This document shows positions 2,984 through 18,701 of a stretch of 18,701 bases of DNA, in pieces (the first letter of the stretch is position 1; each line of letters begins with the position of its first letter). Where the stretch lies: IMG/VR virus record IMGVR_UViG_3300044846_005772. One strand, written 5' to 3'. This stretch comes from a virus (lineage: Duplodnaviria; Heunggongvirae; Uroviricota; Caudoviricetes). The notes below the pieces were generated by a model that was not told the DNA's origin, did no database searches, and saw only the letters and a list, made by a program, of their open reading frames with translations. A program made the position numbers and the translations under genes.

Positions 2984-3022
2984 ATCTACCTCGTTTAATA
3001 AATAACAAAAATAAATTTAATT

Positions 3023-3454
3023 ATGATACTCAACTACGATCAATGGAGAGAAATCAACGAAAACGATAATCTTGAAGCGGCTGGTGTTGCCAAGAAGATT
3101 TATCGGGCATTGAAGGCAGCCGGTAACGAGGTTGATCTTACGTATCAGACCGACGCTCTTTCCAAGAAAGGCGACGCAAAGCACATACGCAATGCGGCAG
3201 CTGATACGATCACAGTCGCATACTATGTTAACTGGGTGCATGTTGTTCCAGTAGATGAAGAAACAGCAGATTCCCTAATCTCCGAATATGAAACAGATAC
3301 TATCACTGGCAAGAAGAGTAAGTATAACGATGAGCTTTACTCAGTAGCATTTAGCATAAAGGATCGCAAGCAACGTAACGATTTTAACCTTAGTGATTAT
3401 TCATTTTCACGTAAGGAAAACAAGAACGATCGTAAGCGTAAGAAGGAAGATTGA
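3023..3454 (+). CDS. Hypothetical protein with capsid-targeting-like leader (MILNYDQWREINE) and basic C-terminal tail
   Basis: 143-aa ORF; AATAAATA at 2997-3004; ends in RKENKNDRKRKKED. Confidence 0.8.
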   Translation: MILNYDQWREINENDNLEAAGVAKKIYRALKAAGNEVDLTYQTDALSKKGDAKHIRNAAADTITVAYYVNWVHVVPVDEETADSLISEYETDTITGKKSKYNDELYSVAFSIKDRKQRNDFNLSDYSFSRKENKNDRKRKKED

Positions 3455-3465
3455 TCTTAAATCGC

Positions 3466-3843
3466 CTAGTCTCTTAACCTACCCCTTACCATTAATTTTG
3501 CAGTAGCGATATTTGTAGCAATTGGGATCTGCATCACGTTACAAATTCTAAGCAGCATCTGAATATCCGGATCGTGTGGATGCGCGCTCAGCGGGTCCAT
3601 GATAAAGATCACCCCGTGCACCCGTCCTTCAACCACCTCGGCCGCTATCTGAGCATCCCCACCAAGAGGGCCGCTGCGTTTACGCTCAACTTTAAGCCCA
3701 GCCTCTTCCAATAGGAGACCAGTCGTGCCTGTTGCCAGGAGATCAACTTCCTTAAAATTCTCGATTTCCCTAATCACAAATGAGATGAGCTCGGCTTTTT
3801 TACCGTCATGTGCTATCACAGCAATCCTAAGTTTCTTTTCCAT
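3466..3843 (-). CDS. mgsA: Methylglyoxal synthase
   Basis: Signature motifs IAHDGKK, ATGTTG, SGPLGGDAQI, DPLSAHPHDPD, CNV..IPIATN.ATA; 125 aa. Confidence 0.95.
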   Translation of the reverse strand: MEKKLRIAVIAHDGKKAELISFVIREIENFKEVDLLATGTTGLLLEEAGLKVERKRSGPLGGDAQIAAEVVEGRVHGVIFIMDPLSAHPHDPDIQMLLRICNVMQIPIATNIATAKLMVRGRLRD

Positions 3844-3881
3844 GATTTTTTATACTCCTATTTAGATATTGGATCAGGTCA

Positions 3882-3889
3882 GATAAATA
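3882..3889 (+). promoter_or_regulatory. T4-like late promoter box (GATAAATA)
   Basis: 23 nt before ATG 3913. Confidence 0.55.
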
Positions 3890-3912
3890 ATACTACAAAT
3901 AAACAGATACTT

Positions 3913-6684
3913 ATGTCATTTATCAATTGGGGAGACGAAACTCCAGAACAAAAGGCACACCGTCGAAAGATGGAAGAGCAAGCGCTTATTGAACACGCAA
4001 TGATGCGTAAAATATTTGAGGCACGTAGCGGAACAGCGTCAGCTGCAGCAGCATCCGCTGGCTCTGGCTCGCCTTTTCCAAGTAAACTAGGAATAAGTAC
4101 ATCTTACATATACGACGATATTAATGGAGATCTCCGAATTGGTTTCGTAGACTATGCTATCAATGGATTCAGCAAGGTGTTCAACACAGGTCTTAACCTC
4201 GTAGATCAGTGGATTTACGATATTAATAATTATAATGGAACTTACATAGTTGATAGTAAGGGATACGCGATCGTCTTTTCAAACAACGTAAATGAGCACA
4301 AGATCTTCTTCTTTACTGCAGGAGGAGCTCACATAGACACCATTGAAGTTACTACTAGCGATCTTTCAATATGGGGCATCAATGGCGACTGGGTTCTATT
4401 GCAAGACTATGATGCTCGTAAAGTATGGTGGTTCGATGGCGAAACTCTTAGATACGATTTCGATACATTTGCAAATACTAGTATTTTTACATACGACTAT
4501 CAGTATAACTTGGATGGATTCTTCATATACTCCTTGAAAAATGGAATGAGTCGTGTCTATATTAACGACGGCCTAGGATTCAGAGTAATCATGGAGCAGG
4601 ATATTACTCTAACTCCAGATATCTCCCATATCCATAGAGCTTATGCAAACTCCAGAATCCTACGTGTCATTACCTACGATTCTGCAGAAGGGGCATATAC
4701 GAAGCTTGAGTATTTCGATTCTGATGCTAATTCTCTGAACGACTATGATCTTTCAGGTGAAAATTATACTGAAACATATGGCGATGTTTATGGAACAGGT
4801 AAGCATATTGATTCCTTCCTAAACTCAACTACGCTTATCATGTATTACTGCGATTCGGTTAGACAGATATATCTAGATCAAAATCACTCTAGAGTTAATT
4901 ATGGAGACTACTTCGTTATTGGCGATTATGTGAGTAAAGGCACATTCACCGACTCAATCTCAGAGAGAGCTGTGATATGTTTCAACAATAATTCCGGAAT
5001 CTATCAAAATGGACTACTTGAAGTAACTTACTGCGATTTCATTCCAATGTACGACGACAATAATGCGTTTTCAACGTATACGCTTGCCGACGACGAAGCT
5101 AAGCTTTTTGGAAGAGATAGCATTTTTGTAGCAGACGCAATTTTTGTACCGGTTTGCACAGATACTGTAGCTGATCCTAAGCAGCTTCAGGTGCTGACCT
5201 TCCCTATTGGTGCCCCTGCAACATACACATCAGATTTGATCGACTTTAATAGTTTTCAAATTATTCAAAACTCTTTTGGCTCAGGTAAGAGATACTTCTT
5301 AATCGTTAGCGACGACGCGTATCCTTCTCCAGGAGAAGTCTTCGTATTCGATTCAGTTGGACTTTCATGGAAGTCATTTATCTTTACTGATGTTACTAAC
5401 GGTAACTTAGTAATTGATACTGCGGGTGATGTCTTAACTTTTAGATGTTCAAACGATCCGTCTGATACTTACTATTACACAGCAACTACTAATATTTTAA
5501 ACCCAGGCGTAGCTCCTAAGTTTGGAAGCGTTTACCAACCAACTAACTGTAAAACAGAAAATGGAGTGGAACCAAGTACGCTTGTACTACAGGGAGCAAC
5601 TAGTTCTAGACTGTACCTTTTCAACGACGCTGGCAATGATGCGATAATCGATGGAGGGGACAACATGTACAATGGAGGAAATCAGCTGTATTCTGGTATT
5701 GCTGGATCAATTCCATACACTCACACGCAATCGACTGGAAATAATGGAGTTGAAGCGACATCTGCCGACTTTGTGAAGGATGGAGCAGTAGTGAATGGCG
5801 ATTCATACTTCGGAGGAGGATCCAGCTACTTTACAAATTGTTATCCTGGTCTCTTCGTTTGCGTAGCTAAAAACATTAATGTGGATTACTTTGGAATTGA
5901 AGGAACAACTGGATCCGATACTTCTGGATATGTCTCAAGTGATCCTATCAACATCACGGTCGGTGGAACAGATTACACAGTATTCTACAAGACTACTTCG
6001 GGTGGAGGTGTTGACTTCTCGTCAGGTCCAATTCCTACGGTTAACCAGATCATAATTATTGATTCTCAAAGCGGAGATGCTATTCAAACAGTTGGCGATG
6101 GAGCACTCAATGATCTTCATGAAATAAGCGAGCTCGTTGCTTCAGGCGCTAATGATATTCACTACCTTTTGCTATCAACCTACAATCAATCTGTTCAGGT
6201 TGGATTAACTGAGAGCGAAATTACTACTATTGCAACTGCATACTTGAACGTGGTTCATGGATACAATATTGCAGATACCTTATCCGAACTTAACGCTAAC
6301 TACTCGGAGATCACAAGTTTAGTAAACTCTCAGGATACTTACTGGTTAGGTCTAGTAAATAACTCAGGATTCACTCAAGTTGACTCTCCATACTTTGAAA
6401 ACGTTAGAGTTGGACCTAACTTAATAGCTGGAGTTTATTTCAATGAGACAAATAACGTTTGCGTAAACCTTTACGATACTAGCTTACAGTTGCTGGCAAC
6501 ACACGTTACTGATGAGACTGAATATACTCACTTGAGAGTTATTGGAGATCGCGCGTACACAAGAACATTGAAGCAAGACGGTACACGAGTTTGGACTATC
6601 CTAAATCCTGAAAAGTTCGCTAAAAAGTCGGTTTTTGCAGTAAATGACTTTTTTGCAGAAAACAACGATTATCCAAACTGGTAA
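3913..6684 (+). CDS. Large beta-rich putative virion/receptor-binding protein (923 aa from MSFINWGDE)
   Basis: Long ORF; start moved from 3808 (which overlaps mgsA) to ATG 3913 behind a late box. Short helical N-terminus, Ala/Ser/Gly linker, then a Tyr/Asn/Asp/Gly-rich body. Function is inferred only. Confidence 0.65.
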   Translation: MSFINWGDETPEQKAHRRKMEEQALIEHAMMRKIFEARSGTASAAAASAGSGSPFPSKLGISTSYIYDDINGDLRIGFVDYAINGFSKVFNTGLNLVDQWIYDINNYNGTYIVDSKGYAIVFSNNVNEHKIFFFTAGGAHIDTIEVTTSDLSIWGINGDWVLLQDYDARKVWWFDGETLRYDFDTFANTSIFTYDYQYNLDGFFIYSLKNGMSRVYINDGLGFRVIMEQDITLTPDISHIHRAYANSRILRVITYDSAEGAYTKLEYFDSDANSLNDYDLSGENYTETYGDVYGTGKHIDSFLNSTTLIMYYCDSVRQIYLDQNHSRVNYGDYFVIGDYVSKGTFTDSISERAVICFNNNSGIYQNGLLEVTYCDFIPMYDDNNAFSTYTLADDEAKLFGRDSIFVADAIFVPVCTDTVADPKQLQVLTFPIGAPATYTSDLIDFNSFQIIQNSFGSGKRYFLIVSDDAYPSPGEVFVFDSVGLSWKSFIFTDVTNGNLVIDTAGDVLTFRCSNDPSDTYYYTATTNILNPGVAPKFGSVYQPTNCKTENGVEPSTLVLQGATSSRLYLFNDAGNDAIIDGGDNMYNGGNQLYSGIAGSIPYTHTQSTGNNGVEATSADFVKDGAVVNGDSYFGGGSSYFTNCYPGLFVCVAKNINVDYFGIEGTTGSDTSGYVSSDPINITVGGTDYTVFYKTTSGGGVDFSSGPIPTVNQIIIIDSQSGDAIQTVGDGALNDLHEISELVASGANDIHYLLLSTYNQSVQVGLTESEITTIATAYLNVVHGYNIADTLSELNANYSEITSLVNSQDTYWLGLVNNSGFTQVDSPYFENVRVGPNLIAGVYFNETNNVCVNLYDTSLQLLATHVTDETEYTHLRVIGDRAYTRTLKQDGTRVWTILNPEKFAKKSVFAVNDFFAENNDYPNW

Positions 6685-7829: not shown

Positions 7830-8429
7830 TTATTTTAAAGAATTGATTAATTGATTAGATATTATGCCAACATTTAGAGTATTTACTGGAGTTAACGTCT
7901 GTCCACTTCTTAGTTTTTTAGCGCTTTCTTTATGCTCCCAGTGCCATGGCTCAATATTTCTAGCAAGTGTGGTAAATCCAAAAACCTCTGCATTTGTTTT
8001 TGCTCCACTCTTAAGAGCCGCTAACTCTGCGCTAGGTGCAGCATTTAACCAATTCCAAGCAGAATCTCCCTTTTTTACAGTTATATCAACTGCACTTCCC
8101 CACCCATGATTAGATGTACCTGGGCGAGCCGCCAAGTTTCCTTTTCCTGATTTATACTTTTTCCAAGCACACCACTGTGTAAAGCCCTTAGAACAACCTT
8201 CACTTTCGCTACCTAATGCTCGGTATGATTGCAATATTTTCCAACGTATTCCAGCTTTTTCAGCTGCAGCTACCATTGCATTATACGCAGCTGCCGCTTC
8301 CGGATTAAGGCGATGATCAGCAGTTTCACCCATTTTTTTCACAATTGGGATTAGCAGATTTGTGCTTAATGCTCCATTTGAATTCTCATTAAGTTTCTTC
8401 CAATCGAAATATTCAACTAAGTATTTCAT
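7830..8429 (-). CDS. M15B/VanY-type D-Ala-D-Ala carboxypeptidase-like Zn peptidase with capsid-targeting-like leader
   Basis: YR motif, PGTSNHGWGSAVD (SxHxxGxAxD) and EPWH (ExxH); leader MKYLVEYFDWKKLNE. Confidence 0.9.
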   Translation of the reverse strand: MKYLVEYFDWKKLNENSNGALSTNLLIPIVKKMGETADHRLNPEAAAAYNAMVAAAEKAGIRWKILQSYRALGSESEGCSKGFTQWCAWKKYKSGKGNLAARPGTSNHGWGSAVDITVKKGDSAWNWLNAAPSAELAALKSGAKTNAEVFGFTTLARNIEPWHWEHKESAKKLRSGQTLTPVNTLNVGIISNQLINSLK

Positions 8430-8968
8430 TATATCATATCGATATTTTTTAGCCCAACTCTGATTATGTGGTGCATGATATTGTTGCCTAAATCATATAA
8501 AGTATCCGCATTTCTACCTAAACGTTTAATCTCATGTGGAGATAATGGAATAAGTGTTTTAGAACTAGAGTGTTCTGTCTCTTCATTCGTATGCAAATTA
8601 ATATATGTAGTAACTACTTGAAGATACATATTCTCAATTAACTCAGATGGAGTGAATAGTTCTAAGTCGATAAGTAAACTCGAATCACCCGAAGAATCAA
8701 GTATGCTTGCTTCTGCTCTATTGAATGCAAATTTTACTTTTGCATCGAACATTATTGCAAGAGGTTCTTCTGTTTTCCCATCAACTACTTGACCATAATC
8801 GAAGGATACTTCAAGCTGATTAACCATGGGTCTTACCCAAGCCATCCAATTAAGATACTTATTATCGTAATCATCATCGACTTCGGCTAAGATTCTTTTA
8901 GCTACATTATACTCTAATGAGCCAGACGCAGTAGCTTCGTTTACAAATTCTGAAAATGAATGCAACAT
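8429..8968 (-). CDS. Hypothetical protein with capsid-targeting-like leader (MLHSFSEFVNE)
   Basis: 179-aa ORF with 1-nt TAATG stop/start overlaps at both ends. Confidence 0.8.
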   Translation of the reverse strand: MLHSFSEFVNEATASGSLEYNVAKRILAEVDDDYDNKYLNWMAWVRPMVNQLEVSFDYGQVVDGKTEEPLAIMFDAKVKFAFNRAEASILDSSGDSSLLIDLELFTPSELIENMYLQVVTTYINLHTNEETEHSSSKTLIPLSPHEIKRLGRNADTLYDLGNNIMHHIIRVGLKNIDMI

Positions 8969-9891: not shown

Positions 9892-10698
9892 ATGGCATTT
9901 AGCATAGTTATTTCAGAAGATCCTGATTATTCAACTGGGATTCTTGAAAATCGTTCCCTTAAGATAAAAGCTTCAATCAAAGTAATCGGAAACACTTTTC
10001 CAAAAGTATTAAAGGAAGTGCAAAAAGTTTTTACGTCAATTGATGAATTAAACAGTAACCTTAAAAGTATTGAGGCATATGGCAATGCAGACATTCGCAT
10101 ATATTTGGAACTTACTGCATCTACCTCTACTCAAACTGTTGAATTTGTGCAAGTCGGTGAAATCACGCCATTGATACAATCCGCATTAGACAACTCATTT
10201 ACTACTTATACGTATCATGGAGATGCAATTTTTCCATATAGCGAAGTTCCGAAACAAGAAGATCAAATTGAAGAACTTTCAGGAACAATTAAGTTACTTC
10301 TAATTTCCAAGGAAAAATTCGAAGATGCAATAGTTAATGAATATTCAGGAGAAACTCCTAGTATTTCAATAGATGAGGCTATCTCAGTAATTGATGAGCT
10401 AACTGCTGAATATAATAGAATTGGTGCAAAAATATCTGCATACAAAAAACAGGCAAATCGATATATTACTTTTGATGAATTTGATAAGAGCACTGAGGCT
10501 TTTTATAAAAAGTATTATGAACTTCTTTCAAATGATTTCATACCTAGATTAACTGAACTTATGGACAAAGCAGTAGACAATTCAGTTGTTTCTATCCAAG
10601 TTGATTCCAAGATATCTGACCGTTATAAAGCGATTGCTGCTGCTCGAACGGCTTTGACCAATTTGTTGTCTGTGCTTAATGCTCAGGGATTCAAGTAA
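9892..10698 (+). CDS. Hypothetical late protein (268 aa), helical C-terminal half
   Basis: Long ORF with a late box and A-rich start region; no recognised motif. Confidence 0.75.
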   Translation: MAFSIVISEDPDYSTGILENRSLKIKASIKVIGNTFPKVLKEVQKVFTSIDELNSNLKSIEAYGNADIRIYLELTASTSTQTVEFVQVGEITPLIQSALDNSFTTYTYHGDAIFPYSEVPKQEDQIEELSGTIKLLLISKEKFEDAIVNEYSGETPSISIDEAISVIDELTAEYNRIGAKISAYKKQANRYITFDEFDKSTEAFYKKYYELLSNDFIPRLTELMDKAVDNSVVSIQVDSKISDRYKAIAAARTALTNLLSVLNAQGFK

Positions 10699-10722
10699 AT
10701 GTGACTAATTATAATCTACCCT

Positions 10723-10730
10723 TATAAATA
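10723..10730 (+). promoter_or_regulatory. Exact T4 late promoter consensus TATAAATA upstream of the signalling operon
   Basis: TATAAATA at 10723-10730; nearest ATG at 10754, annotated GTG at 10768. Confidence 0.6.
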
Positions 10731-10767
10731 GTAATAGATATTACATTAAAAATATGAAACAGATAGA

Positions 10768-12003
10768 GTGTTTTGGCAAGATCTTCCACAGTCAAGTAGA
10801 TTTCCTTTAATTGGAGCTCTGCTTGTGATGGCAACTTTTGCAGCAATCAAAATGCTTTTATTTTTTGGAGTAGTCGAATATTCTTCCAAATCTTCATTAT
10901 TTGAAGTAGCTTGCTTTATAATATTCATTCCGAGTTTTTACATAACTGTTTTTGCATTCATCAATGAGCAAAAGAGAAAAAATCTCGAAATTAGTCAATT
11001 CATAGATGCGTCGGCGATTGTCTCAGTTACCGATAAGCGGGGTAAAATAACGTACGTTAATAAAAAATTTGAAGATGTATCTGGTTGGACTCTCAAGGAA
11101 GTAATAGGTAAAGACCATAGCTTAGTGAATTCGGACACCCAACCTGCTGGATATTGGGGTAAAATGTATGAAACTGTATTGCGTGGTGAAATATGGAATG
11201 ACATAGTCTGTAATAAAGCAAAGGACGGCTCTTACTATTGGGTCGACACATATATTAGAGCAAGGTTCGATGTTAATGGAGAACTTGAAGGTTTTTCATC
11301 GATTCGACAGGACGTTACGAAAATCTTGGAGCAATCCAATGAGCTTGACAGAAAGAATACGTATTTGGAACATGCTGCTAAGATACTTAGACATGATATG
11401 CACTCTGGTATCAACACATACATACCTAGAGGACTTAACTCCTTGGAAAGAAGATTAAATCACGAGGAAATCGATAGGTTAAAGATTGAAGCTCCTTTGA
11501 AGATGATTAAGGAAGGTTTAAAGCATTCGCAAAAAGTATATTCAGGTGTCTATGAATTTACTAATCTTGTCAAAAAAGACGTCGTTCTTAATAAGAAAGA
11601 GTGTTCAATTAAAGACATTCTCAAGGATTACTTGTCATCCACTGCGTACATTAGTCAAGTCATAATTGAAGAATCTCTTCCAACCATTTTAGTAAATGAA
11701 CCTCTTTTTTGTACAGCACTTGATAACTTAATTAGAAATGGTTTGAAATACAACGATTCTGATTCCAAATTCGTTAGGATATATTGTGAATCGAATTGCA
11801 TAGTAATACAAGATAATGGAAGAGGAATTACTCAGCAGGACTTTGATCATTTGTCTAAACCATACGTTAGGAAGGAAGGACAAAAGGAATCTGGAACAGG
11901 TTTAGGCTTGAATATTTGTGTAGCTATCCTAAAGGAACATGGTTTCAAAATCACCTGTGAGAAAAATGATATTGGAACAAAAATGAAAATACATTACTTA
12001 TGA
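10768..12003 (+). CDS. Membrane PAS-domain sensor histidine kinase
   Basis: Two N-terminal TM segments; Aer/NifL-like PAS (ITYVNKKF..SG...EVIG.DH...KDGSYYWV); H-box RHDMHS; N-box DNLIRNGLKYN; G1 DNGRG; G2 GTGLGL. Start codon uncertain. Confidence 0.9.
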   Translation: MFWQDLPQSSRFPLIGALLVMATFAAIKMLLFFGVVEYSSKSSLFEVACFIIFIPSFYITVFAFINEQKRKNLEISQFIDASAIVSVTDKRGKITYVNKKFEDVSGWTLKEVIGKDHSLVNSDTQPAGYWGKMYETVLRGEIWNDIVCNKAKDGSYYWVDTYIRARFDVNGELEGFSSIRQDVTKILEQSNELDRKNTYLEHAAKILRHDMHSGINTYIPRGLNSLERRLNHEEIDRLKIEAPLKMIKEGLKHSQKVYSGVYEFTNLVKKDVVLNKKECSIKDILKDYLSSTAYISQVIIEESLPTILVNEPLFCTALDNLIRNGLKYNDSDSKFVRIYCESNCIVIQDNGRGITQQDFDHLSKPYVRKEGQKESGTGLGLNICVAILKEHGFKITCEKNDIGTKMKIHYL

Positions 12004-12614
12004 AGAAATTATTATTAATAGTTTTATCATCTCTATTTTCTATGACAGTGTTTGCTCAAACCAAATATCCTATCAAGACAATATTCAAGGGAGACTCAGT
12101 TGTGATTTTAACAGTCCAACAATCTGAAAAAATAAATCAGATGCTTGAGAAAAGTGCAGTCGCGACCAAGGAAAATCGAAAGAAAAATAAAGAATATGAA
12201 GATGAGATTGCTAAGTTATCCAAGATAATTTCCGATCAGAATGCTTATATCGATAGTTTATCAAATGTATTATTAGAATGTTGGACTGATGGAGATGAAT
12301 TGTCCGATAGCTTATGGAAATGGGCGATAGGCCCTTCGCTCGTGTACACTCAATATCCAGACGATACTACTCTTTACGTTATGGACTTATCTCACTATTA
12401 CATGACAACTGATGATTTTGGAATAATTATGGTTAGATTGTCTGATCGTGAATATGCAAAATATCAGGAATTTATTGCTAGATATGGATTGAGCGAAGAT
12501 GCTTTTTGGAGATTTAGAAATGAGATGCGAATAAAAAAACTTAGCGATGCTGAAGTTAAGCAAAAAAGAGTTTGGAAGTTTAAATTACAGTGGAACAAGG
12601 AGGAACGTAAATGA
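12000..12614 (+). CDS. Secreted/periplasmic protein with coiled coil (signalling-operon accessory)
   Basis: Signal peptide MKKLLLIVLSSLFSMTVFA-Q; heptad region; ATGA overlaps with both neighbouring kinases. Confidence 0.8.
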   Translation: MKKLLLIVLSSLFSMTVFAQTKYPIKTIFKGDSVVILTVQQSEKINQMLEKSAVATKENRKKNKEYEDEIAKLSKIISDQNAYIDSLSNVLLECWTDGDELSDSLWKWAIGPSLVYTQYPDDTTLYVMDLSHYYMTTDDFGIIMVRLSDREYAKYQEFIARYGLSEDAFWRFRNEMRIKKLSDAEVKQKRVWKFKLQWNKEERK

Positions 12615-13942
12615 AATCAATATTAACCTTTATTTTTGTAGTAGCCAGTACACTCGTACTTTCTCAAGATAGCATTGATTTTACTATTAATCCAAATTGG
12701 GAAAATCCAGAAGAATTTAAAGACACTGTTGTCGCAAAGTCTTTCAACTTAAATGATATTTTTCCAGAAAAGATTATTCCAAGTTGGATCGCTCCAGAAC
12801 CAGATCCTGAGCCTCTTTCTCAAGAATTAAGTGAGGCCGATATTAAGTTATTGGAAGGCGATGTTAAATTTATGTCAGAACTTCCACAGTCATATTCTAA
12901 TTTACCTAAGGAGAATTTGAACTCGATTTTAAAGCAGATCGATAATAAAATAATTCAGTTAAAGCAGGAACTAGATGCTTTGATAAGCGCAAGAAATGCA
13001 AATCAGGAAGTTATTAAAACCAAGCAGAACACATTAACTGTTCTTGAAAAGGAAAAGAATATAATAAACTTGACATTGGCTGAGGGCGAGCTTAAGGACA
13101 AAAATGGAAACTTATTAAATCAAAATGATATATTAAAGATTGAGCAAGACAAACTTAGAAAGTACTTATATACTGCATTTGCTATTCTTCTAGCTCTTTC
13201 ATTAGTGATAGCTGTTGTTCTTCAAAGAAAAAGAATACAGGTTCAGGATGTTGAAATACAAGACCAAATTGACGAGATTAATAAAAAGAACAGCTATTTG
13301 GAGCATGCTGCTCGAATCATCAGACATGATATGCATTCTGGAATTAACACGTATATGCCACGTGGAATAAGTTCACTTGAAAAAAGGCTGAGCGCAGAAG
13401 ACATCCACAAATTAAAAATAGAAGCTGCTCTTAAGATGGTCAAAGAGGGCCTTAGTCACACTCAGAGGGTTTATAAAAGTGTATATGAGTTTACTAACTT
13501 AGTTAAACAGAATGTAGTTCTAAATAAATCTAATGTGAATCTTAAGCAACTTCTAGATACTTATATTTCCGCAAATCCATATAGTTCTCAAGTTGAAATT
13601 TCAGATCTTTGCGAGATAGAAGTAAATGAGATACTTTTTTGCACAGCTATTGAAAATTTAATAAAGAATGGTCTAACATATAACGATAGTTCAGAAAAAG
13701 TAGTTAAGATATATTTAGAAGAAGATTCATTAATCATAGAAGACAATGGCCGAGGATTTTCACAAAAGGATTTTGAAAAACAGCTTAAGAAGTATTCGAG
13801 CAAAGAAGAATTTTCAGAAGATGGAAAGGGTCTTGGCTTGAACATATGTTCAGCAATATTGGAAGAACATGGTTTTTCTCTCTCTTGTGATAAAGTTGAG
13901 AAAGGTACTAAAATGAAAATTAAACTAAAAAATAATAAATAA
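12611..13942 (+). CDS. Sensor histidine kinase with signal peptide, periplasmic coiled coil and one TM (paralogue of 10768..12003)
   Basis: YLEHAARIIRHDMHSGINTY H-box nearly identical to the first kinase; ENLIKNGLTYN, EDNGRG, GKGLGL boxes. Confidence 0.9.
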   Translation: MKSILTFIFVVASTLVLSQDSIDFTINPNWENPEEFKDTVVAKSFNLNDIFPEKIIPSWIAPEPDPEPLSQELSEADIKLLEGDVKFMSELPQSYSNLPKENLNSILKQIDNKIIQLKQELDALISARNANQEVIKTKQNTLTVLEKEKNIINLTLAEGELKDKNGNLLNQNDILKIEQDKLRKYLYTAFAILLALSLVIAVVLQRKRIQVQDVEIQDQIDEINKKNSYLEHAARIIRHDMHSGINTYMPRGISSLEKRLSAEDIHKLKIEAALKMVKEGLSHTQRVYKSVYEFTNLVKQNVVLNKSNVNLKQLLDTYISANPYSSQVEISDLCEIEVNEILFCTAIENLIKNGLTYNDSSEKVVKIYLEEDSLIIEDNGRGFSQKDFEKQLKKYSSKEEFSEDGKGLGLNICSAILEEHGFSLSCDKVEKGTKMKIKLKNNK

Positions 13943-13948
13943 AAAAGT

Positions 13949-14386
13949 ATGATAGATTCTATTTTGTTGGTCGATGATGAAGATTTATTTCATCTAGTTT
14001 TTGAGGATGCTTGCAGTTTGCTAGACATAACGCTATCCTTAAAATCTATTAGAAGTTCAGATGAGGCAGGCCGACTTTTTAAGAAGTGGTTCGATGAAGG
14101 ATCCAGCATAGAGAGACCAGAATGCGTGTTTGTTGACTTGAACATAATTGGTTCTTCATTCGATGGAATTGAATTGATTAGAAAGATAAACTTCGAATAT
14201 GGTAATCACGTTGTGATAGGAATAATCTCATCATCTAATGAATCTACTGAGCAGGCAAAAGCTGTTCAAGCAGGTGCTCAGTTTTGGATAATCAAATCAG
14301 ATGATATTGAGCCAAGATTAGAAGAATTCAAGAAGGATTACGACAGTTATAAAAATAGAACAGCTCCATTTAAAGTATACAGATGA
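13949..14386 (+). CDS. Single-domain (CheY-like) response regulator
   Basis: ILLVDDED acidic pocket, FVDLN phospho-acceptor Asp, ISSS, conserved Lys in IIKS; no output domain. Confidence 0.9.
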   Translation: MIDSILLVDDEDLFHLVFEDACSLLDITLSLKSIRSSDEAGRLFKKWFDEGSSIERPECVFVDLNIIGSSFDGIELIRKINFEYGNHVVIGIISSSNESTEQAKAVQAGAQFWIIKSDDIEPRLEEFKKDYDSYKNRTAPFKVYR

Positions 14387-15060
14387 TAAAACTTACTCCA
14401 GATATTCATAAAGAGTTAATTGAGTTACAGAAGACCAAAAATATATCTCTTGAAGGTAACATAATCCGCATGATAGATCATGATGGAGATGAGGAGTTTG
14501 CAAAGTATTTGGAAGAAAGTCTAGCTAAGGATAAAGAAACTCGACGTCGTAGGCTTGAGATCACCAAGCAGATTCAGGAGAAAAATAATGAGTTAACTAA
14601 TCTGAACGCTGAAAATCAGAGGATCATGGATGAACTTCAAGATTCTGTGAAAAATATGGAAGAGCAGAAGGATCAGATAGAAATTCAAAATCGTGAATTA
14701 ATTGCATGGAAGGAAGATAATGAACGAATTTCAATTGAACTTAGGGATGCAATGTTAGAATCTGAGAGAGCTAAGGAGGCTGCTGAACGCGCAAAGGATG
14801 CTGCTGAGACTGATCTCGATATGATGCAAAAGAAAACTCAATTTGAGTTGATTGGAGTAATCGTAAAAGTTTCTCTTTTTGTAATAATTGGTGTTGGAAT
14901 AACAACAACTGTTTTATACGTGATAGCAATATTCAACGGAACAGATACTCAGATAATCGGTTCAACTTGGAGTAATATGTTTGGTATATTATTGACGAAC
15001 GCTTTCTCGATAATAGGTACTATAATGGGAGTTAAGTACGCTAGCGAGAAGCCAAACTAA
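14383..15060 (+). CDS. Coiled-coil protein with two C-terminal TM helices
   Basis: Long charged heptad region, then hydrophobic VIVKVSLFVIIGVGITTTVLYVIAIF and MFGILLTNAFSIIGTIMGV; ATGA-coupled to the receiver gene. Confidence 0.8.
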   Translation: MIKLTPDIHKELIELQKTKNISLEGNIIRMIDHDGDEEFAKYLEESLAKDKETRRRRLEITKQIQEKNNELTNLNAENQRIMDELQDSVKNMEEQKDQIEIQNRELIAWKEDNERISIELRDAMLESERAKEAAERAKDAAETDLDMMQKKTQFELIGVIVKVSLFVIIGVGITTTVLYVIAIFNGTDTQIIGSTWSNMFGILLTNAFSIIGTIMGVKYASEKPN

Positions 15061-15121
15061 CTTACATGCGATCTATTTTAACAATCCTGTTCCTAACTAT
15101 TCCAATTTCTCTAGGGATTTG

Positions 15122-15129
15122 GATAAATA
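15122..15129 (+). promoter_or_regulatory. T4-like late promoter box (GATAAATA)
   Basis: 8 nt before in-frame ATG 15138. Confidence 0.6.
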
Positions 15130-15137
15130 TTAATACT

Positions 15138-16241
15138 ATGACTTACCTCATTCCATTATACGAACAGTTTAAAGAAGATAATGCATTAGCTGGTTATAAT
15201 TTTCACCAGGTGCCAGATGGCTTAAACAATTATAGAAGCGCACAGCTTCCTCCTGAACTTTTAGATTATGTCATAAAGAAATATGGCATAAAGAACGTAA
15301 TTCGATTGAATGGAGACGGCCATGATGCAAGGCACAGAAGAACAGATGTTGAGGTTCCTAGTGAAACTGAGAAAGCTACTTGCGAGAAAAACGGTTGTGT
15401 ATTCAATAAAGTCAGCTCACACAGAGGATACGTTCCAGGCCAAGGATATACTGAATCAATAAAGCAAGTAAATTCAATAATGAGCAAGGGAAATACTTTG
15501 ATTCATTGTGCGCATGGTGCAGATAGAACAGGTGGAATGGTTGCAGCTTGGTTAAAGAACAGCGGTAAAATGACCGACTTAAATCAACTTTGGGATTATA
15601 CTACTTCTAAAAATAGTTGGCTTTCGCTAATCAAAAATGGAGGTTTTTGGAAAGGTTATCATAAGTATGCAGATGGATTCTTTCCAGTAGATAAATTATG
15701 TTCCATTAAAGGAATATGTGCCCCTGGAACAACTAAACAGACTACTAATCAATCTCAAATACAATCTGCCCCAGGAAATGCTGTACTCGTAGGAGGATTG
15801 GACTATAGAGCTGGTGATTATAAGATAGATAAACAGGTCGAATTATTAAAGTCAGGCTATGGATCTTCAAAAACTGTTCAGGGATTTAGGTACAATACTG
15901 CAACATCCAAAGTTATTAACTTTTTATCGCAAAATCCAAAAGTTCCAATATTCTTATTTAGTGCAGGTTGCGTGAAGGCTAGCGATTTAGCGAAAAGCGA
16001 ATTTGTAGATAAATCAAGAATTTACATAATTGAGCCGTATGGTGTTGACGCGAATACTCGTAAAATTATCCAAGATGCAGTAAGTTTAGGTGTGCCTGCG
16101 TCAAACGTATTCGTTGGCTCATCTCAAGCAAGAGGAGCAAATATCGTTAGTGGAGCATCATCTTCTGGTTCAAATATTCATTGGGGAGCAGTCACTTCAG
16201 TTGGTCGATTAGTCGCTGATCGTGAGACAAAGGGTCAGTGA
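15138..16241 (+). CDS. Cys-dependent (CX5R) PTP/DSP-type phosphatase fused to an alpha/beta-hydrolase-like domain, with capsid-targeting-like leader
   Basis: YRSAQL, GIKNVIRL, IHCAHGADRTG P-loop; T/Q-rich linker; second domain VLVGGLD...LFSAG...YIIEP...H. Start reassigned from 15066 to 15138 (MTYLIPLYEQFKE). Confidence 0.8.
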   Translation: MTYLIPLYEQFKEDNALAGYNFHQVPDGLNNYRSAQLPPELLDYVIKKYGIKNVIRLNGDGHDARHRRTDVEVPSETEKATCEKNGCVFNKVSSHRGYVPGQGYTESIKQVNSIMSKGNTLIHCAHGADRTGGMVAAWLKNSGKMTDLNQLWDYTTSKNSWLSLIKNGGFWKGYHKYADGFFPVDKLCSIKGICAPGTTKQTTNQSQIQSAPGNAVLVGGLDYRAGDYKIDKQVELLKSGYGSSKTVQGFRYNTATSKVINFLSQNPKVPIFLFSAGCVKASDLAKSEFVDKSRIYIIEPYGVDANTRKIIQDAVSLGVPASNVFVGSSQARGANIVSGASSSGSNIHWGAVTSVGRLVADRETKGQ

Positions 16242-16597
16242 GACGCTTCAATTAAAAGTTCTCCAAGTACCTCTATGATTCCCATTATCTTTTGAAATTC
16301 TATAGGATTGTGATCAATTATCTCAGACGGCCTATCTCCTAATAATTTAATATTTTTTTCAAGTTCAGCTTTAGCTGCTGTGCTATCAAATTTTCCAGCA
16401 GCGGCTTTCATATAGTGCTTTAATTTTACTTGAAAGTGGTGATACGTTAACATAGCAGGTCCGCCCTTAGCTCGAGCAGTATCGGCTATCTTCTTAGCGC
16501 CATTATATCTTTTCTGAGCAAATTCTTCAAATGACTCTGATTTTGACTTTTTAGATTCTAATATAAATTCAGTATATTTTTTAACTAGACTGCTCAT
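16235..16597 (-). CDS. Hypothetical basic protein with capsid-targeting-like leader (MSSLVKKYTEFILE)
   Basis: 120-aa ORF; tandem CATAAATA/AATAAATA boxes on the minus strand at 16615-16626. Confidence 0.8.
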   Translation of the reverse strand: MSSLVKKYTEFILESKKSKSESFEEFAQKRYNGAKKIADTARAKGGPAMLTYHHFQVKLKHYMKAAAGKFDSTAAKAELEKNIKLLGDRPSEIIDHNPIEFQKIMGIIEVLGELLIEASH

Positions 16598-16778: not shown

Positions 16779-17336
16779 ATGAAGTATTTTATTGCTTTAT
16801 TCGGTGTAATGTATTCTGTATTGAGTTTTTCACAATCTACCTTTAATCCAGATACAGTATGCTATCAAACTCCAGGTTCAGTGTATCAGGTGACAAATGA
16901 TCCTGGAAACATTTACACATGGTCAGTATCTTCTCCAGGAATATTAGTCAGTGGACAGGGAACAAATTCAATAGTTGTAGATTGGAGTAATGCTTCTCCT
17001 GGGTTAATTACAAACGGTGTGTCAGTTTTTCCAACAAATCAATTTGGGTGTGTTGGTCCAACCGTTGATATTAATGTGTACATACTGAATGTTGTTCTCG
17101 CAATTTTTCCTCTAGAACTTTGTGAAAATGAACCGTGTGAAACTCTTTCTGCTTCTCCGACTGGAGGAGAATGGTCAGGGATAGGAATAGTTGGAGATGA
17201 ATTTTGCCCATCTATCTCAGGAGTTGGTGTATTTACATCAAATTACACTTATACTTTAGCTGGTTGTACTTTCACAACTACTGGAATAAACACAGTTCAT
17301 CCAACACCAACTATAACTCCAATTACTCATAACTGA
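16779..17336 (+). CDS. Secreted protein with PKD/Ig-like domains
   Basis: Signal peptide ending SFS-Q; YTWSV..G.LVSGQGTNSIVVDW...N..GC PKD-like motif; second unit LSASPTGGEWSG.GI.G..F.P typical of Bacteroidota surface proteins. Confidence 0.8.
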   Translation: MKYFIALFGVMYSVLSFSQSTFNPDTVCYQTPGSVYQVTNDPGNIYTWSVSSPGILVSGQGTNSIVVDWSNASPGLITNGVSVFPTNQFGCVGPTVDINVYILNVVLAIFPLELCENEPCETLSASPTGGEWSGIGIVGDEFCPSISGVGVFTSNYTYTLAGCTFTTTGINTVHPTPTITPITHN

Positions 17337-17342
17337 TGAATA

Positions 17343-17927
17343 ATGAAAGTAATTATTCAATCAATAATATTTGTCTTGGTGTTCACAAGATCATTTGCGC
17401 AGCACACAATTGAGCTATGTCCTTGGAATAATACTACATTTACATATCAATCTACTTCAAATACATTAGGACAATGGTTTTGGATAATTGATGAAGATAC
17501 TCTTTCATATAATAATTATGTGACTATTTCATGGTCTTCTCCTGGAGATTATGAACTTATCGCAAGTTTTGAAGCAGACTGTGGAAATCCTAGAGATGCT
17601 ATAATCATTCACGTGATTGAGTGTACTGAGTCTGCCATCTATTTTCCTAACGCCTTTACTCCTAATTATGACAATCTAAATGATGCTTGGGGCCCAATTG
17701 GGATAGGGATTGTTGAAATTAAATGGATGATATTTAATAGATGGGGAGAACAAATATACACATCTGATTCCATGACAGATAGGTGGAACGGTTCATATAT
17801 TAAGAGAAAAGAGCCCGGAGAAGATTTTTATTATGTTCAGGAAGATGTTTATGTGTATCGTGCATGGTGGAAGGACGTTAATGGAAAAAGTGGAGAAGCC
17901 GTTGGCCATATTGTTGTAATACGATGA
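17343..17927 (+). CDS. Secreted protein with gliding-motility-associated (T9SS type B, CHU_C-like) C-terminal sorting domain
   Basis: Signal peptide ending SFA-Q; C-terminal FPNAFTPNYDNLND.W...IFNRWGE.IY...WNG...DVYVY...G...GHIVVIR. Confidence 0.88.
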   Translation: MKVIIQSIIFVLVFTRSFAQHTIELCPWNNTTFTYQSTSNTLGQWFWIIDEDTLSYNNYVTISWSSPGDYELIASFEADCGNPRDAIIIHVIECTESAIYFPNAFTPNYDNLNDAWGPIGIGIVEIKWMIFNRWGEQIYTSDSMTDRWNGSYIKRKEPGEDFYYVQEDVYVYRAWWKDVNGKSGEAVGHIVVIR

Positions 17928-18701
17928 AAATACGAGTTCTAATATTTTTTTTGACTATTTCAAAAATAGCATCATCACAGTGTCTAAATGCTGACTTTGA
18001 GCTAGGTACTTTTACTGGATGGGCAGGTCGAACTGGGACATGTTGTCCAATTACTTTACCGAATGCCGGAATTGTCCCAGGTAGACACACGATAATGGCG
18101 GGCACAGGTACTGACCCTAATACCTGCAACCAAGTTCCAGTAGTTTCTCCGTTCGGTGGAAATTTTTCAGCACGACTTGGAAATCCTGCCAGAAATTCTA
18201 GAGCAGAAAGTTTAAGCTATACATATACTGTTACTCCTAACTCCACTCTTTTTACGTACCAGTATGCAGTAGTATTTGAGGACCCTGGACACACAGATGA
18301 TGAACAGCCTAGATTTGAAACTCAAGTAATTGCTGGAGGTCAGCCTATACCTTGCACCCAATATATGGTATCAGCCGCGTCAAATCTTCCAGGTTTTCAA
18401 AGTTGTCCTGGAATTGACTGGCAAGGTAACCCGATAAATATAGTATACCGAAATTGGTCTACGGTAGGAGTAGACCTCAGTGCATATATCGGACAATCAG
18501 TTACGTTGGAATTTCAAACTGGCGACTGCGATTTAGGAGCTCACTTCGGCTATGCATATATTGATGCCATAGGTTGTCAGCCTATGGAAATTGAAGTTCT
18601 ATATTGTGTGAACGATACTGTAGCAACATTAACTGCTCCTCCAGGATTCGCTGAATACTTATGGAGCACCGGCGAAACTACACAATCGATTACAATAGAT
18701 C
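17924..18701 (+). CDS. Secreted Bacteroidota-type surface/adhesin-like protein (partial, runs off the window; missing from the ORF track)
   Basis: My translation: MKIRVLIFFLTISKIASSQCLNADFELGTFTGW...FSARLGN...AESLSYTYTV...YAVVFEDPGH...QPRF...GDCDLGAHFGYAYID...YLWSTGETTQSITID, open for 259 codons; ATGA overlap with the previous stop. Confidence 0.85.
   Translation, partial: MKIRVLIFFLTISKIASSQCLNADFELGTFTGWAGRTGTCCPITLPNAGIVPGRHTIMAGTGTDPNTCNQVPVVSPFGGNFSARLGNPARNSRAESLSYTYTVTPNSTLFTYQYAVVFEDPGHTDDEQPRFETQVIAGGQPIPCTQYMVSAASNLPGFQSCPGIDWQGNPINIVYRNWSTVGVDLSAYIGQSVTLEFQTGDCDLGAHFGYAYIDAIGCQPMEIEVLYCVNDTVATLTAPPGFAEYLWSTGETTQSITID

Follow-up and report, generated by a model that had tools for sequence, protein, structure and literature searches.

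We analysed an 18,701-nucleotide (nt) stretch of DNA from a Caudoviricetes virus record (IMG/VR IMGVR_UViG_3300044846_005772), hereafter the window, focusing on an operon that encodes two histidine kinases, a secreted 204-residue (aa) protein, a stand-alone receiver and a 225-aa coiled-coil membrane protein, here called cc225. The five open reading frames (ORFs) lie on the plus strand (Table 1). Stop and start codons overlap as ATGA at positions 12000, 12611 and 14383, the junctions of genes 1 and 2, 2 and 3, and 4 and 5, and the genes for kinase 2 and the receiver are 6 nt apart. The five-gene operon with three such overlaps that had been proposed from the letters of the sequence (the original prediction) was recovered with every element in its predicted place. 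Pfam families were found in both kinases and the receiver, and none in the 204-aa and 225-aa proteins; membrane segments and signal peptides were assigned by simple hydropathy calls. A terminator scan revealed none inside the operon on the plus strand, and scans of the window for sigma-70 promoters and terminators returned hits at chance level only. Contigs of three independent DNA studies covered most of the window piecewise, mostly at 99% identity or more and with no indels reported; the assembly was therefore judged sound. The same DNA was found again in lake and freshwater metagenomes of many studies.

Table 1 Features of the operon and its borders in the window (TM, transmembrane segment; DHp, dimerization and histidine phosphotransfer domain; CA, catalytic and ATP-binding domain; PTP/DSP, protein tyrosine/dual-specificity phosphatase)
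Feature	Position	Strand	Description
TATAAATA box, T4 late-promoter consensus	10723..10730	+	In the 69-nt gap before the operon; 37 nt before GTG 10768
Kinase 1	10768..12003	+	Two N-terminal TM, cytoplasmic PAS, divergent HisKA-type DHp (predicted) with RHD histidine, CA domain
Secreted 204-aa protein	12000..12614	+	Signal peptide; mature chain starts with conserved YPIKT...GDSVVILT; helical middle
Kinase 2	12611..13942	+	Signal/TM, ~160-aa periplasmic domain, one TM, DHp, CA; no HAMP or PAS
Stand-alone receiver, 145 aa	13949..14386	+	Phospho-acceptor Asp63; Response_reg 32.0 bits against a cut-off of 30.2
cc225, 225-aa coiled-coil protein	14383..15060	+	Head 1-36, helix 37-184 into TM1, short outside loop, TM2
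PTP-like protein, probable sixth operon gene in this sub-lineage	15066..16241	+	Signal-anchored; Cys-X5-Arg PTP/DSP-like domain and unknown ~150-aa C-terminal domain

Kinase 1 matched the Pfam models PAS (1.3e-8) and HATPase_c (4.4e-15), and kinase 2 matched HATPase_c (8.8e-13), with HATPase_c scores of 56.5 and 49.1 bits, respectively, against a cut-off of 26.4. Both show the NGLxYN, DNGRG and GxGLGL motifs, corresponding to the N, G1 and G2 boxes of the Bergerat-fold CA domain. The Pfam HisKA model matched neither kinase at E <= 0.01, whereas the DHp and CA domains aligned over their length to HK853 of Thermotoga (phmmer, 5.3e-11), with the RHD histidine on the H-box histidine; because of this alignment, both appear to be divergent HisKA-type (class I) kinases that the Pfam model misses. 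Across 228 residues of DHp and CA, the two proteins are 60% identical, with just three differing positions in the H-box stretch, which agrees with the earlier description of two paralogues with a near-identical H-box. Hydropathy placed both membrane segments of kinase 1 ahead of its PAS domain and identified segments 1-19 (signal/TM) and 182-200 in kinase 2, the residues between them lying outside the membrane. Pfam and hydropathy together support the proposed arrangement, in which a cytoplasmic and a periplasm-facing kinase would converge on one receiver. In a tree of the DHp and CA domains, all copies of kinase 2 formed one clade (support 100/100), and the first kinases, including kinase 1, nested among the single kinases of relatives. 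Since the second kinases form this one clade, kinase 2 and its secreted partner appear to form an ancient accessory branch, acquired in a single event and today kept in a patchy pattern.

The signal sensed by kinase 1 had been proposed to be redox or energy state, read through a flavin-binding PAS domain of the Aer/NifL type. The PAS domain exceeded the cut-offs of the Pfam PAS, PAS_3 and PAS_9 models and has a related fold, with 35% identity across 110 residues to the annotated PAS of the aerotaxis receptor Aer. However, the Aer segment VRHPDMP (the Arg57/His58/Asp60 region), which carries residues that Aer requires to bind flavin adenine dinucleotide, aligns to VNSDTQP in kinase 1 (NSDT for RHPD), and flavin binding is therefore not supported. 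In relatives, a GAF domain is often added.

Analysis of 36 phage sequences of the receiver revealed that D9, D10, D63, S94 and K116 are invariant and that mean column identity is 90%, compared with ~60% for the kinases and cc225 and ~40% for the secreted protein. Its closest solved chain was 3ilh, a two-component response regulator, and 3ilh and Spo0A were the best solved matches. No DNA-binding part was present, in line with the prediction of a receiver lacking an output domain. In three complete relatives, the cassette (the operon and its homologous gene sets in related phages) holds the sole receiver and the sole HATPase_c kinases of the genome; because no others were found in these three genomes, the relay appears to be self-contained, as had been claimed, and to lack a DNA-binding regulator. 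The secreted 204-aa protein occurs only together with the kinase-2 clade in the loci of relatives and is weakly conserved (mean column identity 41%). It matched no Pfam or PHROG family, its AlphaFold2 (AF2) model had a mean predicted local distance difference test (pLDDT) value of 64 and was unusable for structure search, and an Atlas search gave no usable match for it or for the PTP-like protein encoded after the operon.

The AF2 model of cc225 (pLDDT 86.8) consists largely of a single helix that runs into the first of two C-terminal TM segments called by hydropathy, and the resulting hairpin is flanked by lysines on both cytoplasmic sides. Almost no variation is seen in the loop and TM2; the stalk is variable and contains 7-residue indels, as expected of a coiled coil held in register. 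No Pfam family matched cc225, no holin family matched it in Pfam or PHROGs, and a Foldseek search of its model against viral models returned one family member and otherwise only noise. The protein is represented by 7495 database clusters. In every uncut locus, cc225 lies directly 3' of the receiver, the two genes share an ATGA overlap in 43 of 54 distinct pairs, and the order kinase-receiver-cc225 is kept even where cc225 identity is only 39-46%. From this adjacency, coupling and conserved order, we infer that cc225 is probably the partner of the receiver. Right after cc225, and convergent with it, many architectures contain a conserved hydrophilic protein of 51-59 aa without a family (11109-11276 on the minus strand in locus L025; also L043, L044 and L036).

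To describe the anatomy of the cassette, genes were called and clustered in 98 loci, and the kinase, receiver and cc225 emerged as the invariant core. The kinase-secreted protein-kinase form of the window was found in 9 of 68 architectures, and other variants insert or add a YceI protein. In one group (L073, at 3000-3992, L078, L081 and L083), a patatin-like phospholipase (PF01734, 3.6e-21) is encoded between the kinase and the receiver, which places a predicted membrane-degrading enzyme inside the signalling operon. The receiver was present in at least 577 IMG/VR contigs. Relatives of kinase 2 were found on nine IMG/VR contigs at 63-72% identity, with the rest of the cassette adjoining wherever the contigs reach and with differing flanks.

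The setting of these loci is viral. A T4 Gp23-type capsid gene was detected in four of five long cassette-bearing relatives, three of which are 291-322 kb in length and 99-100% complete; no such gene was found in relatives of 51 kb and 33 kb, both fragments with CheckV completeness of 17% and 11%, respectively. Close to the cassette, relatives encode an RnlA-like RNA ligase, thymidylate synthase (ThyA), endolysins, holins and DnaK. The phage DnaK (Hsp70) lies a few genes off the cassette in many relatives (4159-6024 in L007; L025, L043) and is 59-69% identical to the DnaK of published uncultured phages of 630-735 kb. PHROG and Pfam scans of the window flanks revealed no hallmark genes. A cc225 profile searched against one genome each of 185,579 prokaryote species gave eight matches, all on contigs of metagenome-assembled genomes (MAGs) from eight different lineages and none in an isolate; such conflicting lineages are the usual signature of mis-binned phage DNA. 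The comparison of phage and bacterial genomes thus placed the cassette in viral settings only, and the phage origin assumed at the outset was supported by its presence in the T4-like genomes. Among 50,697 deposited phage records, no relative of the cassette was found at the DNA or protein level, only generic PAS and HATPase_c pieces being matched. An exact 46-mer taken from the window had no match in IMG/VR. The statement that such a system is unusual for a phage held in part: we found no paper describing it, but the cassette is very common in lake metagenomes, where the receiver alone accounts for 3870 sequence clusters in addition to those of cc225. A comparative survey of jumbo phages reported a divergent receiver only in NAD-linked systems and never with histidine kinases (PMC7824862).

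Analysis of the gene neighbourhoods in relatives revealed a recurrent association with lysis genes. Of 42 distinct complete architectures, 20 have an endolysin with PG_binding_1 and GH19 domains as direct neighbour of the cassette; a GH19 endolysin is found no more than four genes away in 23 of them and no more than 10 kb away in 27. By chance, direct adjacency would be expected in ~0.5% of cases per independent arrangement in a genome of ~400 genes; the arrangements are not independent, so any p value is indicative. Two arrangements were observed: the endolysin gene either follows on the same strand 11-13 nt downstream, which leaves no room for a terminator, or is divergent and 48-144 nt upstream. 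In one group of relatives, a holin of the Pam3-gp28 type follows the endolysin. A second line of evidence comes from a fused form. Two MAG-binned contigs (L104 and L105) encode a protein of 371-385 aa in which two PAS domains are joined to the end of the cc225 stalk and the hairpin; the fused gene adjoins an endolysin and a Phage_holin_4_1 holin, and L104 also encodes spanin-like small proteins. The PAS-PAS-hairpin fusion was matched by at least 6010 database clusters at E <= 1e-10. Among 76 IMG/VR loci of the fused form with enough flanking sequence, 54 had an endolysin of any of three reference types no more than 3 kb away, in most cases adjacent, and none of the 76 had a receiver; in two more contexts, the fused protein adjoins a GH19 endolysin. 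The same hairpin is thus fed either by PAS domains directly or through a kinase and a receiver, and its place in the lysis region is kept, which argues that the hairpin is the effector. Several cassettes also have a separate holin, so the hairpin more likely modulates a holin, in an antiholin-like manner, than serves as the main holin. The suggested link of the operon to lysis is accordingly backed by gene context in relatives, not by the window; the further suggestion of a response to superinfection is purely conjectural. Our literature searches turned up no account of lysis genes linked to a two-component or PAS protein of a phage.

Taken together, these data suggest, with slightly better than an even chance in our estimate, that the operon is a phage-borne, self-contained phosphorelay controlling a lysis-regulating membrane module. 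Kinase 1, through its cytoplasmic PAS domain, would phosphorylate Asp63 of the receiver, and in this branch kinase 2, with its periplasmic domain and secreted partner, would phosphorylate the same residue. Through protein contact, the receiver would then act on cc225, to which it is translationally coupled, at the cytoplasmic head or stalk. The two-helix hairpin of cc225 would be the lysis-control module, either antiholin-like or holin-modulating, and the phage would in this way adjust when the host lyses to the condition of the infected cell. Phosphotransfer, binding of the receiver to cc225, the sensed signals and the direction of the effect on lysis are steps that we infer, and this phage presumably uses the module as its relatives do, with its lysis genes lying outside the window. 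A more specific version, which we put forward tentatively and at somewhat less than an even chance, is a phosphorylation-gated lysis switch: the phosphorylated receiver would bind the head or stalk of cc225 and alter the association of the hairpin with the holin, and the switch would exist in one-component (PAS-PAS-hairpin) and two-component forms in thousands of variants in freshwater phages. It would be the first two-component system known to act post-translationally on virus-induced lysis.

Several observations weigh against control of lysis by the operon. The operon of the window has no recognised endolysin or holin gene beside it; the position that an endolysin occupies in many relatives is taken by the PTP-like gene, which begins 5 nt after cc225, and the only muralytic gene is a VanY/M15 peptidase (7830-8429, minus strand) 2.3 kb upstream on the opposite strand. 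In 15 of the 42 architectures, no GH19 endolysin lies within 10 kb, and the neighbourhood counts as a whole are phylogenetically non-independent. Class II holins are small membrane proteins with two TM helices and both termini inside the cell, encoded next to the endolysin; with 225 aa, of which ~150 form the cytoplasmic part, cc225 is bigger than typical holins, and the separate holins in several cassettes leave its role between antiholin, second holin and some other function. Complex prediction for the receiver with residues 1-160 of cc225 gave a score of 0.34, compared with 0.09 for the best control; the runs shared at least 97% of contacts, with partner pLDDT of at least 80. In the calibration, 58 of 80 solved complexes attained the 0.34 mark, as did 2 of 110 mismatched pairs, but at <=0.60 it was attained by only 7 of the 80 solved complexes and by both mismatches, so that the prediction argues for binding only weakly.

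The same relay could instead govern another envelope process, such as type IX secretion or gliding of a Bacteroidota host, superinfection exclusion or membrane remodelling, with the endolysin neighbourhood reduced to inherited synteny. This reading gains from the recurrence of type IX secretion system (T9SS) cargo beside the cassette (at 16779-18700 in the window, as an upstream 775-aa protein in the L036 group, and in L049, where both families of the window recur), and from the operon of the window running into the signal-anchored PTP-like protein instead of an endolysin. In addition, the CheY-like domain of PorX has been suggested to have a role in T9SS motor activity in Bacteroidota (PMC10951265). 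Yet the receiver exhibited no special likeness to PorX, its best solved matches being those given above; T9SS cargo neighbours few of the listed loci, whereas an endolysin is close in 23 of 42 architectures; and the PAS-fused hairpin sits within classical endolysin-holin cassettes of unrelated, smaller phages. We therefore regard an envelope process other than lysis as unlikely. The fused form also bears on a different possibility, namely that the receiver targets a host protein, hijacking host signalling or metabolism, and that cc225 serves only to anchor or sequester the receiver at the membrane. The excess of receiver conservation over that of the kinases and cc225 is what would be expected if the receiver had to fit a further partner that evolves slowly, and the nearest solved chain, 3ilh, is itself a two-component response regulator. 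However, the fused protein drops the receiver and keeps the hairpin and its genomic place, which points to the hairpin, not the receiver, as the effector; we consider a host target a little less probable still than another envelope process.

That the stretch is bacterial, either a host contig with a normal two-component operon of the chromosome or the inert remnant of a prophage, is close to refuted and in our view very improbable. Capsid, portal and terminase genes are missing from the window itself, and it does carry genes of Bacteroidota type, encoding proteins with T9SS C-terminal domains (CTDs) and a methylglyoxal synthase (MGS)-like protein. Against this stand the genomes of about 290-322 kb in which the cassette occurs together with the T4 capsid gene, the isolate-free matches on MAG contigs of conflicting lineages, the phage neighbours of the relatives (RnlA-like ligase, ThyA, endolysins and holins) and the composition of the Atlas clusters holding cc225, which are 96-100% viral.

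The timing of expression was addressed through the box upstream of the operon. TATAAATA occurs in a single copy in the window, and since ~1.7 copies per strand are expected from composition, its presence alone is within chance. Of 34 distinct relatives, 16 carry an exact copy no more than 120 nt ahead of the first kinase gene, compared with 70 of 569 for all genes with a gap of at least 40 nt (Fisher p = 2e-7, uncorrected for relatedness). In two complete relatives, no copy was found within ~400 nt upstream of the capsid gene. Late expression, as the original prediction had it, is thus not supported, the box being enriched before the cassette in relatives yet missing ahead of the capsid gene; a late unit would agree with joint transcription of cassette and endolysin in many relatives. 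The sole RNA trace is a 240-nt freshwater metatranscriptome contig that matches 14466-14705 exactly; it may reflect DNA carry-over and is silent on timing. Two further short motifs recur ahead of the first kinase gene in many loci (for example L014, 6090-6165; window, 10690-10756): AAGTAAATAG is located ~25-45 nt before the start, and ATATTTAT stands 4-8 nt ahead of the ATG. The ATATTTAT motif of the window stands before ATG 10754, which lies outside the reading frame of kinase 1 and opens an ORF of 18 codons. The start of kinase 1 itself is ambiguous between GTG 10768 and ATG 10828. A frameshift at this start, considered in view of the conserved-looking ATG 10754, was rejected, as the independent DNA contigs contain no indel and the N-termini of the closest homologues differ.

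Beyond cc225, the window differs from most relatives. The PTP-like protein matched DSPc at 4.4e-6, with a score below the cut-off, and its P-loop aligned to DUSP18 with the HC-X5-R loop intact. A gene 77% identical to it occupies the same position in the closest relative, L189 (11119-11958), and is absent from the other 97 loci; a possible substrate is an envelope lipid or sugar phosphate. The sub-lineage of the window therefore combines a membrane-anchored kinase 1 with a single PAS domain and a PTP-like envelope protein in the endolysin's slot after cc225. The 199-aa gene upstream in L189 was examined as a homologue of the VanY/M15 peptidase and rejected. The peptidase carries a capsid-targeting-like leader, and similar leaders of 13-17 residues ending in (L/I/V)-N-E were observed on unrelated proteins of the window (1671, 2357, 3023, and on the minus strand 7830-8429, 8429-8968 and 16235-16597); these resemble the capsid-targeting and prohead-protease site of T4. 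T9SS cargo with PKD_6, a CHU_C type IX signal and SprB repeats lies near the cassette in differing neighbourhoods, in the window as well as at 5411-7738 in L036 and in L049. Such cargo points to a Bacteroidota host, and its place beside the cassette possibly reflects a second envelope function. The MGS-domain gene (3466-3843, minus strand) overlaps the start of a 958-aa ORF on the opposite strand (3808-6684, plus), which matched no Pfam or PHROG family and no deposited phage record.

Lysis timing is usually treated as a fixed clock encoded by the holin, except for lysis inhibition in T-even phages and a few analogues. In T4, lysis inhibition involves holin T with the antiholins RI in the periplasm and RIII in the cytoplasm (PMC8385771, PMC11413866, PMC6832632), and the Vibrio phage ICP1 has an analogous lysis inhibition system (PMC7182436). 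The proposed system would share with T4 lysis inhibition a phage-encoded, post-translational and signal-dependent control of timing, with periplasmic and cytoplasmic inputs onto a membrane lysis protein, and the relatives are T4-like by their capsid gene. There is no sequence relation between the two, however, and here the signal would pass through kinases and a phosphorylated receiver, or through fused PAS domains; to our knowledge, neither kind of input has been described for any antiholin. A search for holin T (Phage_holin_T, PF11031) found none in three complete relatives, although the control search was equally empty and RI and RIII were not searched for. Among bacteria, the LytSR two-component system of Firmicutes is coupled to the holin- and antiholin-like proteins LrgAB and CidAB (PMC4830213). 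It resembles the present system in tying a two-component system to such membrane proteins, with cell energy or membrane state as the supposed input, but LytSR is chromosomal and LytR is a DNA-binding transcriptional regulator, whereas here the genes are viral, the receiver lacks an output domain and cc225 has no relation to LrgAB and CidAB. CheA-CheY-FliM provides a third comparison, since its regulator is also receiver-only and the phosphorylated form would in both cases bind a target protein rather than DNA. It differs in that the kinases here are predicted to be of the HisKA class I type, best matched by HK853, with no CheW, methyl-accepting chemotaxis protein or flagellar target, and in that the presumed partner is a dedicated membrane protein encoded by an overlapping gene. 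Compared with T4, ICP1 and LytSR, the logic is common, the parts are all different and the output family is new.

Phages with this cassette probably sense the state of the infected cell before lysing it. If so, sensors of several kinds (PAS, GAF and periplasmic domains) would be placed on a lysis module in abundant lake phages, and the timing of the burst would follow host physiology, with consequences for how viral mortality and carbon release are modelled. The cc225 protein and its hairpin constitute a large unannotated family of viral proteins, and natural receiver-cc225 and kinase-receiver pairs number in the thousands, which opens the interaction to covariation analysis. The one- and two-component designs of the same output would offer a compact modular pair for study and engineering.

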